Source: a virus. From it: DNA of 6,177 bases. Shown one piece after another: positions 2,130 through 6,177 of the stretch. The position numbers and the translations under genes are program-made. The notes under the pieces were generated by a model. That model was not told the origin of the DNA and ran no database searches. It worked only from the letters and a program-made list of their open reading frames with translations. The DNA lies in the IMG/VR virus record IMGVR_UViG_3300045988_043592, positions 1-6,177 of that record; one strand, 5' to 3'. Within the stretch, counting starts at the first letter, position 1, and every line of letters starts with the position of its first letter.

Positions 2130-2468
2130 ATGAAAAAAATAGGAATTAATTACAGAAGCAAACTAGGAACAGCACTAGTAGAAGGCGAGAGAATTGAGTT
2201 AAAAATTGACAGAATGACGCAAAATAATGAACCTATCGGGGATAGCGCACCATTAATCTACACAGCAAGGAAAGATGGAGTAATAGCAGCATACGACATC
2301 CGAACAGATAAGTGGGATATTGCCTTAGACGCAATGGAGAAAGTTAACCAAACAAGAGGCAAGATTTCAGAGTTAGGCGGTATGCGAGAAGCGAAGAAGA
2401 ATATTGACGAAGAAGCGAAAAAAGCCGTAGCCAACGGTGCAATTGATTCAAAAAATGAACTCAATTAG
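2130..2468 (+). CDS. Small hypothetical protein, 112 aa, with a K/E-rich C-terminus. Its position between capsid and pilot genes allows a scaffolding or structural accessory role, but this is unproven.
   Basis: The ORF starts 11 nt after the VP1 stop, is on the same strand and has non-repetitive, globular-looking sequence. I recognise no family motif with certainty. Confidence 0.65.
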   Translation: MKKIGINYRSKLGTALVEGERIELKIDRMTQNNEPIGDSAPLIYTARKDGVIAAYDIRTDKWDIALDAMEKVNQTRGKISELGGMREAKKNIDEEAKKAVANGAIDSKNELN

Positions 2469-2499
2469 CATGTCACCACTTTAGTGAAACAAGTTCATA

Positions 2500-2514
2500 C
2501 GTGTAAAATGCACG
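2500..2514. other. Small hairpin cgtgta-aaa-tgcacg in the intergenic spacer
   Basis: Pairs 2500:2514, 2501:2513, 2502:2512 and 2503:2511, then a T:G wobble 2504:2510 and 2505:2509, with a 3-nt loop. Confidence 0.4.
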
Positions 2515-2529
2515 ACCATTAAAACCAAA

Positions 2530-2581
2530 GATTCCGCGGGGACGCACGGCATAGATTGTCCAATAAGTTTACCGCGGAATC
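2530..2581. other. Perfect 10-bp stem (gattccgcgg / ccgcggaatc) enclosing a 32-nt loop that contains an inner ggac/gtcc helix
   Basis: 2530-2539 is the exact reverse complement of 2572-2581. The inner 4-bp pairing is 2540-2543 with 2558-2561. The segment is GC-rich, non-coding and sits in an AT-rich genome. Confidence 0.7.
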
Positions 2582-2635
2582 CTCTTAAAAGAGGGTGGTA
2601 CGCACGTAGCATATATTATCAAGTTATAATGTAAG

Positions 2636-2652
2636 GCTCTTTAATAAAGAGC
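2636..2652. other. Hairpin gctcttt-aat-aaagagc (7-bp perfect stem, 3-nt loop), 26 nt upstream of the VP2 start
   Basis: 2636-2642 is the exact reverse complement of 2646-2652. Confidence 0.6.
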
Positions 2653-2677
2653 GAAAACAATGTAAAAACTTATTATT

Positions 2678-3790
2678 ATGGGATTTATAAAAAATGCGTT
2701 AGGAATGATTGGCGATGCAGCCACAGGCGGACTAGCAAGCGGGATAGGGAGTTTTGTAAGCGGGATATTCGGAGATAAGGGGTTATCGAAGAAGGACCAA
2801 TTAGAAATCATGAATAAACAGCACGGGTATGAATTGGAAAACATGGATTACCAAGCGAAGCTTAACGAAGAAATGGCACAGAGAAACCAAGAACGCCAAA
2901 ACGAATACTTCGGAATGACAGCAGAGTATAACTCGGCAAAAAATCAAAAACAAAGATTAAAAGACGCAGGATTAAACCCTGCATTAATGTACGGAAGCGC
3001 AGGAAGTGGCGGAGCAGGAACAGGAAGTACAGGAGGAGCAAGCGGAAGCGGTGTCGGACTATCGCAAGCGCAAGCAGTAGGCATGGGTCTACAGTTAAGC
3101 CAAATCAAGGCACAAACGAACCTGATGAACGCAGAAGCAGCCAAGGCATATGCAGACGCGAACAAGACCAAGGGGGCAGACACGGATAAAGTAAGACAGG
3201 ATATTGCGGAGAGTGAGGCAAGAATCGATGAAATTATAGCCAAGATTCCTTCAGAAAAACAGCAATATTACATAGGCAAGGCACATGAAGAAGCACTCAA
3301 GGCAAGCAAGCTATTAACAGATGCAGCAGCAGCCAAAACAGACGAAGAACGGAAGGTGTTAGCAATACAGCAGCATGTATTGTTTAAGGAAGTTGACAAG
3401 ATGGTTGCCGAAATCGAAGGAGTAGGACTAGATAATGACCAAAAGAAAATTATCAAAAATTCACTACAAAGAAGTATAGATTCTCACATATACCTGAATA
3501 CAGCTCAAGCGATAGCAGCAGAAGCAAACGCAAAGTTCTCAAATGAAAACATAAAAACCATTGAAGGACAATTACAATTATGGTCAAAACAAGCTGAGAA
3601 TTGGGAAGGACAACGGGAAAATGTCAGAAAACAAATCGAAGAACAGGTTAAGCAATGGGGACAAGAAAACATGTTCGAGGGAAAGAAAATCAGCCTAGAA
3701 CAAACAAGAACAATAGCAGATATAATCCTAAGAAGTTTAGAGAGTGTGCAAAAAATCGGTCAAATAGTAGGAACAGCAATAATTAAGTAA
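2678..3790 (+). CDS. VP2: Microviridae minor capsid / DNA pilot protein (VP2, functional analogue of phiX174 H), 370 aa
   Basis: The N-terminus is Gly-rich and hydrophobic (GMIGDAATGGLASGIGSFVSGIFG). The motif QRLKDAGLNPALMYG is typical of microvirus VP2 proteins. A poly-Gly/Ser linker (GSAGSGGAGTGSTGGASGSGVG) follows, then a long A/E/K/Q-rich segment that looks like coiled coil. The gene lies between capsid and rep. Confidence 0.85.
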   Translation: MGFIKNALGMIGDAATGGLASGIGSFVSGIFGDKGLSKKDQLEIMNKQHGYELENMDYQAKLNEEMAQRNQERQNEYFGMTAEYNSAKNQKQRLKDAGLNPALMYGSAGSGGAGTGSTGGASGSGVGLSQAQAVGMGLQLSQIKAQTNLMNAEAAKAYADANKTKGADTDKVRQDIAESEARIDEIIAKIPSEKQQYYIGKAHEEALKASKLLTDAAAAKTDEERKVLAIQQHVLFKEVDKMVAEIEGVGLDNDQKKIIKNSLQRSIDSHIYLNTAQAIAAEANAKFSNENIKTIEGQLQLWSKQAENWEGQRENVRKQIEEQVKQWGQENMFEGKKISLEQTRTIADIILRSLESVQKIGQIVGTAIIK

Positions 3791-3791
3791 T

Positions 3792-4796
3792 ATGTGTCTA
3801 TATCCAAGATTAATACCAAATCCAAAATACAGAACATCTAAGAAGAGAGGGTATTACAAACCCTCTCCTCATGATGCAAGATTAAATTATGTGCCGGTAG
3901 CATGCGGGAAATGCTACGAGTGCAGGAAGAAGAAGGCTAGGGAATGGAGAATCAGACTAGCGGAAGAAATCAGGCACAGCAAGAGTTATTTTGTGACGTT
4001 GACTATTGATAACGAAAATTTAGAGATGTTGAAAAATGAACTAGAAGTAAAATCGGTCAAGGGAAATGAAAACAATATAGCAACACTAGCGCTAAGAAAA
4101 TTTCTAGAACGATGCAGGAAGAAAACAGGAAAATCATTAAGACATTGGTGTGTAACAGAACTAGGTGAAGACAGAGGAAGAATACATTTGCACGGGATAT
4201 TCTTCGGAAATCAAGCAGCGGAATTAGCGATCGAAAAGTGGAAATACGGGTATGTATTTATTGGAAACTTTGTAAATGAAAAAACAATTAACTATATCAG
4301 TAAGTATATGTTAAAAGACGACTTAAACAATAGAGAATTTACAGGAAAAGTATTAACTAGCGCAGGCATGGGAAAACAATACTTCGAACGAGGTGATTGG
4401 AAATTTAACAAGTACAACGGAAAGAATACAAGAGAATATTACGTGTTTAAAAATGGAACGCGAGCAATGATGCCAAGATACTACAGGGATAAGATTTACA
4501 GCGAGGAAGAAAAAGAATTACTTTGGTTGCAAAAACTAGATAAAGGTGATACATGGGTAATGGGAGAAGTCTGCAAAATAGATTCAGATGAATACAAGAA
4601 TCTTCTAAGCTACTACAGAGAGCAAGCAAAACAAATACACGGGGATAATATAGCGTTATGGAAAGAAAAACAGTATTGGCGAAGACTAGAAAAACAGAGA
4701 AGCATGTATAGGAAACGGAGAAATATGAATGAATATATCGACAGGCAAACAGCAGAAAGAATTAACAACTACGAAATTGGCTACTGTCCATTCTGA
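3792..4796 (+). CDS. VP4: Rolling-circle replication initiator, HUH endonuclease superfamily (VP4 / phiX174 A-like), 334 aa
   Basis: Motif I is YFVTLTID (nt ~3987-4010). The HUH motif is RIHLHGIFF, with His codons at 4185-4187 and 4191-4193. The catalytic double-Tyr motif is NYISKYMLK, with Tyr codons at 4293-4295 and 4305-4307. A Cys cluster CGKCYEC lies near the N-terminus. The ATG is 1 nt after the VP2 stop. Confidence 0.93.
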   Translation: MCLYPRLIPNPKYRTSKKRGYYKPSPHDARLNYVPVACGKCYECRKKKAREWRIRLAEEIRHSKSYFVTLTIDNENLEMLKNELEVKSVKGNENNIATLALRKFLERCRKKTGKSLRHWCVTELGEDRGRIHLHGIFFGNQAAELAIEKWKYGYVFIGNFVNEKTINYISKYMLKDDLNNREFTGKVLTSAGMGKQYFERGDWKFNKYNGKNTREYYVFKNGTRAMMPRYYRDKIYSEEEKELLWLQKLDKGDTWVMGEVCKIDSDEYKNLLSYYREQAKQIHGDNIALWKEKQYWRRLEKQRSMYRKRRNMNEYIDRQTAERINNYEIGYCPF

Positions 4797-4802
4797 GGTA
4801 CG

Positions 4803-4847
4803 AAGGTCTCGAGGTTCTCGAGGTTCTCGAGGTTCTCGAGGTTCTCG
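4803..4847. repeat. Tandem 9-nt repeat: four perfect copies of aggttctcg (4812-4847) preceded by one degenerate copy (aaggtctcg, 4803-4811). Each junction forms the palindrome CTCGAG.
   Basis: Read directly from the sequence. The array starts 7 nt after the rep stop codon. Confidence 0.95.
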
Positions 4848-4861
4848 CTACACATGAAGGT

Positions 4862-4874
4862 GTTGCTTCGCAAC
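4862..4874. other. Hairpin gttgc-ttc-gcaac (5-bp stem, 3-nt loop)
   Basis: 4862-4866 is the reverse complement of 4870-4874. Confidence 0.4.
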
Positions 4875-4931
4875 TCATTACTCTCCTCACTTCGTTCGGC
4901 CGTTCCTCGCTCTCCCAGCTCGTCACTCAGG

Positions 4932-4955
4932 CACGCTCGACCCAGTCGAGACGTG
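4932..4955. other. GC-rich hairpin cacgctcgac-cca-gtcgag(a)cgtg: 10 bp with a single bulged A and a 3-nt loop
   Basis: 4936-4941 is the exact reverse complement of 4945-4950. 4932-4935 pairs with 4952-4955, with A4951 bulged. Confidence 0.65.
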
Positions 4956-4970
4956 TAATAGCATCAGGAT

Positions 4971-4992
4971 GTTCTTTGTCTCGGCAAAGAAC
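4971..4992. other. Perfect 8-bp hairpin gttctttg-tctcgg-caaagaac
   Basis: 4971-4978 is the exact reverse complement of 4985-4992, with a 6-nt loop. A T6 run lies 20 nt downstream (5013-5018), which is too far for a textbook intrinsic terminator. Confidence 0.65.
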
Positions 4993-5070
4993 CAAACCGA
5001 CCCCTTCTCTCATTTTTTATTAGCAATGCTGATGGGGAAGTGTTAAAGAAATGTTAAAGTCAGTCATTTA

Positions 5071-5102
5071 TTTGGTTGGCTTATATTTTTGCATTATCTT
5101 TG
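5071..5102 (+). promoter_or_regulatory. Candidate Bacteroidetes-type sigma-A promoter: -33 TTTG (5071-5074), 20-nt spacer, -7 TATCTTTG (5095-5102, matching TAnnTTTG)
   Basis: The motif and spacing match the published Bacteroides consensus as I recall it (TTTG, about 19-21 nt, TAnnTTTG). The site is in the only long AT-rich non-coding stretch, about 50 nt upstream of the first ORF of the small-gene cassette. A second TAnnTTTG match (TATTTTTG, 5084-5091) has no properly spaced -33 element. Confidence 0.55.
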
Positions 5103-5151
5103 TGGTGTGAGAAAGAAATAAACACCATTAACGAACAAAAAATTTACAGTT

Positions 5152-5966: not shown

Positions 5967-6177
5967 ATGAAAAAAAACGGAATGAACCTATTCAGAGTGG
6001 AAAAAACCAAAGTAAACGAAGAAGAAAAATTCGTAATCGTATGCGGAAAGTATCGCGCGTCAAAAATGGAATTCGAAACAAAAGAAGCCACAGAAAATTA
6101 CATTGAAAGCATGATTGATTGGGATATGCTAGTGACCATTGTAGGACAATTAAGCGAGCATATCACAGAAAAAAAAG
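5967..6177 (+). CDS. 5' part of the junction-spanning hypothetical protein. The full ORF runs 5967-6082 and then 1-121 on the circle, giving 78 aa: MKKNGMNLFRVEKTKVNEEEKFVIVCGKYRASKMEFETKEATENYIESMIDWDMLVTIVGQLSEHITEKKVNEMLNSK
   Basis: I translated it by hand in frame 3 from ATG 5967. The frame stays open to the window end and continues through the overlap to TAA 119-121. It is absent from the supplied track only because linearisation cuts it. Confidence 0.6.
   Translation, partial: MKKNGMNLFRVEKTKVNEEEKFVIVCGKYRASKMEFETKEATENYIESMIDWDMLVTIVGQLSEHITEKK
6083..6177. repeat. Terminal direct repeat (copy 2), identical to 1-95
   Basis: 95/95 identity with the window start. Confidence 0.95.

Follow-up and report, generated by a model that had tools for sequence, protein, structure and literature searches.

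Genome organization around the ORF112-VP2 spacer

The window, that is, the whole stretch of 6177 bases analysed here, is a single circular microvirus genome of ~6087 nt with 90 nt repeated at both ends. Positions 1-90 are identical to positions 6088-6177, which identifies the record as circular, with 90 nt of overlap left by the assembly. One strand carries every gene: VP1 (Phage_F capsid; 130-2118), ORF112 (112 aa; 2130-2468), VP2 (2678-3790) and VP4 (HUH rolling-circle Rep; 3792-4796) all lie on the plus strand, followed by small ORFs, the final one of which starts at 5967 and runs across the ends to position 121. The closest database relatives are gut Microviridae with ~65% DNA identity and an identical gene order, and related prophages are found in the genomes of Dysgonomonas, Paludibacteraceae and Bacteroides, which points to Bacteroidales as the hosts. 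Bacteroidales microviruses rank among the commonest ssDNA phages of animal guts.

A spacer of 209 nt (2469-2677, plus strand) separates ORF112 from VP2, and nearly all relatives examined have a comparable spacer of 120-211 nt. An earlier note on this DNA had singled out this junction, which indeed stands out against the neighbouring junctions among the large genes, of 11 nt and 1 nt. The protein identities of ORF112 and VP2 to those of the window are discordant in some relatives, being 94% and 77%, respectively, in L013, and 67% and 85% in L021. Such mosaic relationships of the ORF112-VP2 region (window 2130-3790 compared with L013, L018 and L021) suggest that recombination may have taken place at or near the conserved spacer.

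A second and larger non-coding region, overlooked in the earlier note, spans 4797-5151 and is conserved among close relatives only. The segment following VP4 (4797-5020) is GC-rich (0.52) and non-coding, with four copies of GGTTCTCGA at about 4808-4845; most of 4797-4950 is absent from some close relatives (L012, L013 and L018), which marks it as a variable insert. Downstream of this segment, a Bacteroidetes promoter pair consists of a -33 TTTG (5071-5074) and a -7 TATCTTTG (5095-5102) with a gap of 20 nt. No other coding-strand pair of -33 TTTG and -7 TAnnTTTG exists within the non-coding DNA of the window. The first small ORF (5152) starts ~50 nt downstream, and this pair probably serves as the genome's main promoter.

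The spacer is non-coding and folds more stably than its shuffles

The plus strand of the spacer contains no ORF of at least 30 aa, in agreement with the claim that it is non-coding. Translation of relatives revealed stops in all three plus frames of the window, L013 and L021, and a 43-codon frame on the minus strand meets a stop at codon 9 in eight of the ten close relatives. A short conserved ORF, the coding explanation raised in the earlier note, does not account for the spacer. In GenBank record PP511341.1 (L001:2286-2492), a 68-aa hypothetical protein is annotated over the homologous spacer; this CDS is probably spurious, because the structure covaries and the relatives have no conserved frame.

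The local GC peak claimed for the spacer is present, with a GC content of 0.53 at 2530-2610 compared to 0.37 genome-wide. Fold prediction revealed that the spacer outperforms its shuffles with both ssDNA parameters (z -2.9) and RNA parameters (z -3.9). Two smaller claims fared less well. The repeated heptamer does occur in two copies, GGGACGCACG and GGTACGCACG (at 2539 and 2597), but the first copy is variable among close relatives (L015, L018 and L021). The hairpin proposed at 2500-2514 was abandoned, because it displays no covariation and 8 of 11 sequences cannot form its fourth pair. Close to the 3' end of the spacer, an ATGTAAA motif (2660-2666, plus strand) sits 12 nt upstream of the VP2 start; in many lineages this motif, a start codon followed by a stop, is found 10-20 nt upstream of the VP2 start, and it also recurs within hairpin 1 of other lineages.

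Similarity searches gave matches within the clade only. BLAST of the spacer retrieved matches to its 3' part without recovering the big stem, the phage database matches are confined to its own microvirus clade, and an Rfam 15 covariance-model search of the entire window returned no match at E<=1.

Hairpins 1a and 1b are kept by compensatory changes

Hairpin 1a (2530-2581, plus strand) is composed of an outer stem of 10 bp (2530-2539/2572-2581) and an inner helix (2540-2543/2558-2561), and is directly followed by hairpin 1b (2582-2593, plus strand), a CTCT/AGAG stem capped by a TAAA loop. These helices had been described in the earlier note as a perfect 10-bp stem centred on CCGCGG, an inner ggac/gtcc helix and a small cctc-ttaaaa-gagg hairpin; all three are present in the window, and comparison with relatives revealed that they are conserved through compensatory changes. 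Among the close relatives (10 distinct sequences, ~83% identical genome-wide), the three helices are 99.4% paired. Seven pairs are double-changed, some of the changes counted in L021 actually representing a matched T:A insertion; none of 500 shuffles reached as high a count, and slid registers gave none. Hairpin 1a alone is 100% paired, with double changes at six pairs. Pair 2534/2577 runs through the series C-G, U-G and U-A among close relatives, and L021 keeps a perfect 11-bp stem via the matched T:A insertion together with a G-C to A-T swap.

Hairpin 1 is optional in the clade, being missing from L005, L034 and L101. At the position of the small hairpin of the window, many genomes possess a T-run following hairpin 1 that pairs with an A-run (e.g. 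GGTTTTTTT..AAAAAAACC). As these T-runs pair with A-runs, they are not free terminator tails. This pairing and the optional nature of hairpin 1 weaken its reading as an intrinsic terminator, and the plus strand of the spacer carries no terminator-like site.

A 27-nt core outranks the rest of the genome in conservation

What the relatives actually conserve is an element that the earlier note had not recognised, a 27-nt core GTACGCACGTAGCATATATTATCAAGT at 2598-2624 on the plus strand, which reads GTACGCAYRTAGNNTWTWWTATCWAGT in the clade alignments. Sharing of exact 9-mers across genomes was swamped by A-rich low complexity, and a whole-genome alignment of 13 diverged collinear genomes was used instead. 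Mean column identity was 0.45, and the highest value of any 20-nt window, 0.90, was reached in the core, above all the motifs of VP1 and VP4; the core is also the sole non-coding one among the top 15 windows.

The core is a single-copy element. A scan of IMG/VR found it in 65 viral contigs, at one copy per genome; the only double matches come from two contigs that exceed one genome length, with the copies 6.0 kb apart. Two host genomes (5.2 and 2.0 Mb) contain it once each, within a prophage. In 401 Bacteroidales genomes, matches with up to two mismatches occurred at the chance level given by a reversed-pattern control, save for the known prophage and a CRISPR spacer.

The module built on the core is also portable. 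It precedes genes other than VP2 in three or four lineages, L036, L072 and L010 among them, and in L036 a plain hairpin is left at the ORF112-VP2 junction while the module lies elsewhere. Wherever it is located, the module sits 6-55 nt upstream of a start codon. The earlier note had considered a structured leader controlling VP2 as an alternative; given the relocation of the module before other genes and its one copy per genome, such a leader fits worse than a strand-specific element of the origin type.

Divergence of the core is decoupled from that of VP4, the Rep. L003 has a VP4 only 41% identical to that of the window but an identical core, whereas in the L022 group, whose VP4 (50%) is the nearest one beyond the window's own group, the core has diverged strongly. 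The core is absent from phiHBP1 (L140, PV598014), a microvirus of B. fragilis and the first cultured one of the Bacteroidota (PMC13064476), and is hence not universally required in Bacteroides; phiHBP1 is only distantly related, with a VP4 identity of about 24-28%. It has a 208-nt non-coding region of its own with a GC-rich hairpin (CCCGTCTA...TAGACGGG).

Three further helices in and around the core

The two halves of the core take part in different helices. The GC-rich half is paired by a long-range helix, termed P0 and not noticed in the earlier note, whose 5' arm TACGTGT (2498-2504, plus strand) pairs with 2602-2608 and encloses hairpins 1a and 1b. P0 is 98.7% paired within the close group and encloses 50-95 nt, and its arm and the core co-vary across lineages, as in CTATATGCG/CGCATATAG, CTACATGCG/CGCATGTAG, ACGTGCG/CGCACGT, AACACGTG/CACGTGTT and AGTACG/CGTACT. 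In L034 and L072, where hairpin 1 is missing, the GC half pairs with a downstream arm instead, and P0 pairing is absent from the group C genomes.

The AT half of the core forms a second hairpin (2612-2633, plus strand), in which TATATTAT (2612-2619) and ATAATGTA (2626-2633) flank the loop CAAGTT (2620-2625), with a T.G wobble at 2614/2631. Across the clade, this half pairs with the AT-rich stretch that follows it and places the motif YC(A/T)AGT in the loop; the mean stem length is 6.9 bp, compared to 5.4 bp for shuffled tails (maximum 5.8).

Hairpin 2 (GCTCTTTA/TAAAGAGC; 2636-2652, plus strand), already listed in the earlier note, is likewise kept in relatives by compensatory change. The 59 distinct modules contain 17 different stems, with the bottom pairs fully swapped, and the mean stem length is 7.2 bp versus 3.9 bp for shuffles (maximum 4.5). 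It always lies 9-13 nt past the core and terminates at CGAA. The CGAA directly 3' of hairpin 2 (2652-2655, plus strand) is nearly invariant, with CGGAA in L021 and CGTAA in L005.

RNAalifold on a MAFFT alignment of the module returned no structure, because differences in loop length shift the arms out of register, and an analysis anchored on CGAA and controlled with shuffles was used instead. Unconstrained folds of at least 12 individual lineages recover the common layout, including P0. Altogether, four helices are kept by compensatory change, namely hairpins 1a/1b, hairpin 2, P0 and the AT hairpin.

The wobble pairs reveal the strand on which the fold matters. The non-Watson-Crick pairs of hairpin 2 comprise five G.T and no A.C on the coding strand, G.T making up ~4% of the stem pairs; T.G wobbles are also seen in P0 and the AT hairpin, and U-G intermediates in the stems of hairpin 1. 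The presence of G.T and never A.C on the coding strand indicates that the fold matters on one strand and not as a duplex cruciform. Together with the four covarying helices, these coding-strand-only wobbles argue that the element acts as a single-stranded nucleic acid of plus polarity, either the viral ssDNA or mRNA.

The core is independent of integration and unlike a canonical promoter

The core loosely resembles the dif sites of E. coli and B. subtilis (GGTNCGCA...TATATTAT), which raised the possibility of a dif-like attP used for integration by the host XerC/D. Proviruses of Bacteroidetes microviruses reportedly carry dif-like sites on either side (PMC3091885), and this route of integration was shown for enterogokushoviruses (PMC7062461). 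In the prophages of Dysgonomonas (L034) and Paludibacteraceae (L036), however, the core is intact and internal, and the L034 junctions, which fall between VP4 and the small ORFs, bear other dif-like sites. For the prophages examined, in which the core is neither split nor at the junctions, an attP role is refuted, and we give it virtually no credence for the clade. In the Dysgonomonas sp. 521 prophage (L034:2660-2750 and 8665-8695), ATTAAACATAATAGTAATTATGTAACATT is found at the left end and CTTAATAGTAATTATATAACA at the right end, with an additional dif-like sequence just within the left end, as described previously (PMC3091885).

The location of the element upstream of genes, together with a TATAAT at 2625-2630 of the window, would suit a promoter for VP2-VP4. 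This TATAAT is not conserved, however, and the plus strand of the spacer has neither a -33 TTTG and -7 TAnnTTTG pair separated by 19-21 nt nor a sigma-70 match; a sigma-54-like GG/GC spacing fails because the GG is not conserved. Moreover, a covarying single-strand structure is no property of a promoter, and the core is not found in host genomes outside prophages. We consider a promoter highly improbable. The readings as a DnaA box or an IHF site were also ruled out by scans or by missing conservation.

A host CRISPR spacer matches the core

Spacer 7 of a CRISPR array in the Bacteroidales genome G135, TTGGTACGTACTTAGCATATTATATCAAGT, is the microvirus core. The core is thus precisely what a CRISPR spacer of at least one host targets, and this spacer links the microvirus clade to that host. 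The array (contig C3, 591934-597977; L108/L137-L138) has 33 repeats of 36 nt and spacers of 30-31 nt. Its neighbours are a 188-aa effector with two TMs and a 1079-aa ORF, near both ends of which HEPN-like R-x4-H motifs occur. The 1079-aa protein gave no match in Pfam, NCBIfam, PADLOC or a PDB sequence search, and cas1/cas2 were not seen among the nearby ORFs of at least 150 aa. The locus is probably a divergent type VI-B system. If it is, the repeat degeneracy would point to a crRNA complementary to coding-sense RNA, in which case the core would be transcribed.

This match bears on the possibility that the element works in mRNA, as a folded region between cistrons to which a protein or RNase binds and which sets transcript processing or stability, or the translation of the next gene. 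A plus-strand fold with G-U pairs suits RNA equally well, as does the z-score obtained with RNA parameters, and the constant placement shortly before a start codon is what such an element would show. Since the only canonical promoter (5071-5102) lies upstream, the spacer should be transcribed, and a spacer from a probably RNA-targeting locus matches the coding-sense core. By contrast, a single copy that relocates before unrelated genes is odd for a gene-specific regulator. The T-runs of relatives are taken up by pairing with A-runs and the window itself has no terminator tail; the low share of G.T among stem pairs and the lack of an Rfam match also count against it. On balance, an mRNA element appears unlikely.

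Possible VP4 nick sites on either strand

The minus strand of the core contains AACTTGATA (2617-2625), a 9/10 match to the origin recognition decamer CAACTTGATA of phiX174, the origin of which was read from record J02482. Of 67 genomes, 40 have CTTGATA within the core on the non-coding strand; the coding strand never carries it at a conserved position. The T before the G of this match varies among the ~83% identical relatives, with A, T or C on the plus strand. Strand composition was analysed as well. At fourfold-degenerate sites, the coding strand has 59-60% A and ~16% T (long ORFs of the window and 67 related genomes; A/T 1.7-3.9), compared to an A/T of 0.7-0.8 in flanking host genes and of 0.1-0.5 in the T-rich phiX174, Chp2 and SpV4. 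The coding strand of phiMH2K is also A-rich (A/T 1.9), which means that the composition at these sites is not decisive for the packaged strand.

Taken literally, these features would have VP4 nick the core on its non-coding strand (AACTTG/ATA), in a clade that packages the antisense strand, the hairpins being RNA features. The decamer match sits in the most conserved element, and the non-coding strand is T-rich like the packaged strand of phiX174, Chp2 and SpV4. Nevertheless, the match is short and was found post hoc, the T beside the putative nick is variable and CTTGATA is kept in just those 40 genomes, phiMH2K is A-rich too, and all characterised Microviridae are, to our knowledge, plus-sense. 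We regard this arrangement as very unlikely. If true, it would provide the first negative-sense member of the Microviridae, in an abundant gut clade, and the synonymous A-richness of the coding strand would mirror the usual T-enrichment of the packaged strand.

A nick site on the plus strand was also considered. Every rolling-circle replicon requires one Rep nick site, and conservation in phiX-like phages also peaks at the 30-nt origin. The core might accordingly serve as the viral-strand (double-strand) origin, with VP4 nicking the plus strand in the YC(A/T)AGT loop or at CGAA and the rest of the core acting as the binding site. It is the only non-coding element conserved clade-wide and occurs in single copy, and the conserved motif is presented in a loop beside stems, as in the stem-loop origins of other HUH replicons. 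However, the divergence of the core and that of VP4 do not track each other, and the element is unlinked to the VP4 gene and shifts relative to it. The long-range helix, which encloses 50-95 nt, and the plus-strand-only wobbles are ill-suited to the extrusion of a duplex cruciform, and nothing resembling the phiX/pC194 recognition sequence that precedes the nick is found on the plus strand. We judge such a role for the core to be improbable.

A proposed origin of complementary-strand synthesis

One copy per genome, portability and a conservation above that of coding motifs point to an essential and unique cis function, which in a microvirus means an origin. The folded single-copy spacer element is therefore best read, on comparative grounds, as most likely a replication origin. 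That core divergence does not follow VP4 leans to recognition by a host factor over a Rep nick site. We tentatively favour a plus-strand origin of complementary-strand synthesis that would be recognised by a host factor, and infer that DNA, not RNA, is the form in which the fold acts, with a role in priming. The earlier note had likewise put forward a (-)-strand origin, by analogy with the hairpin recognised by PriA in phiX174. The origin reading gains from the covarying stems, the plus-strand-only wobbles, the single copy, the relocation and the decoupling from VP4, but no sequence likeness to the phiX174 PriA site was found.

We propose that the spacer acts in cis in replication, for which it would fold as single-stranded nucleic acid with plus polarity. 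Three parts would be constant, namely the 27-nt core (its GC half paired in a stem, its AT half in a hairpin that displays the YC(A/T)AGT loop), hairpin 2 and CGAA, whereas hairpins 1a and 1b would be accessory. Once the ssDNA of the virus is inside a Bacteroidales cell, its fold may avoid coating by the single-strand-binding protein and be recognised by a conserved host enzyme, either RNA polymerase or primase, which would then make the primer for minus-strand synthesis. Several observations speak against this proposal: no known priming motif, such as the conserved CTG of G4 or a promoter mimic, was found in the element, phiHBP1 does without the core, and the group C genomes do without P0. 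An analogy with the Bullavirinae would moreover assign the Rep nick site to the best-conserved stretch of non-coding sequence.

We know of no replication origin defined for this clade or for any other non-phiX microvirus, and the 27-nt core and its defined helices represent a precise and testable candidate. The natural variants supply ready-made designs for compensatory mutations, and the core could serve as a clade-wide nucleotide marker.

Comparison with known origins

The spacer element resembles the single-strand origins, including the PriA n' site of phiX174, oric of G4, the minus origin of M13 and the ssoA type, in being non-coding, present in single copy and 75-190 nt in length. They share several hairpins that form on the plus strand only, with conserved unpaired motifs beside variable stems, and they are portable within the genome and conserved independently of the Rep of the replicon. 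However, the spacer element has no sequence or Rfam similarity to them. In particular, it shows no homology to the F-G intergenic n' hairpin that forms the PriA site of phiX174. The primase origin of G4 has a CTG start trinucleotide, compared to the near-invariant CGAA 3' of hairpin 2 in the present element. In ssoA, RS-B lies in a stem and CS-6 (TAGCGT) in the terminal loop. The core has a TAGC(A/C) that is paired within helix P0, and YC(A/T)AGT occupies the loop.

The origin of phiX174 and pC194 (CAACTTG/ATA) is comparable in having a most-conserved block of ~27-30 nt with GC-rich and AT-rich parts and the string ACTTGATA. Differences are found in strand and location: in the core, ACTTGATA runs opposite to the gene strand and the T beside the putative nick is variable, whereas phiX174 and pC194 have CTTG/ATA on the displaced gene-sense strand, where the core does not carry it. 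In addition, their origin lies inside the Rep gene, while the spacer element is intergenic and embedded in hairpins. The stem-loop origins of HUH replicons, such as CRESS-DNA viruses and pMV158-type plasmids, also display an AT-rich stem, a conserved loop motif and an adjoining GC-rich stem, but the present element has no match to the nonanucleotide, no iterons and no adjacent Rep gene.

A literature search found no description of the spacer element, the nearest being speculation on the hairpins of other microviruses (PMC9865509). Conserved intergenic hairpins of the reekeekee- and roodoodooviruses were proposed there, unproven, as minus-strand origins (PMC9865509). Like the present element, they are intergenic, with compensatory substitutions and a conserved loop. 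They belong to other clades and differ in position and sequence, and the element described here adds to such hairpins an invariant 27-nt core, a long-range helix and the tests provided by prophages.
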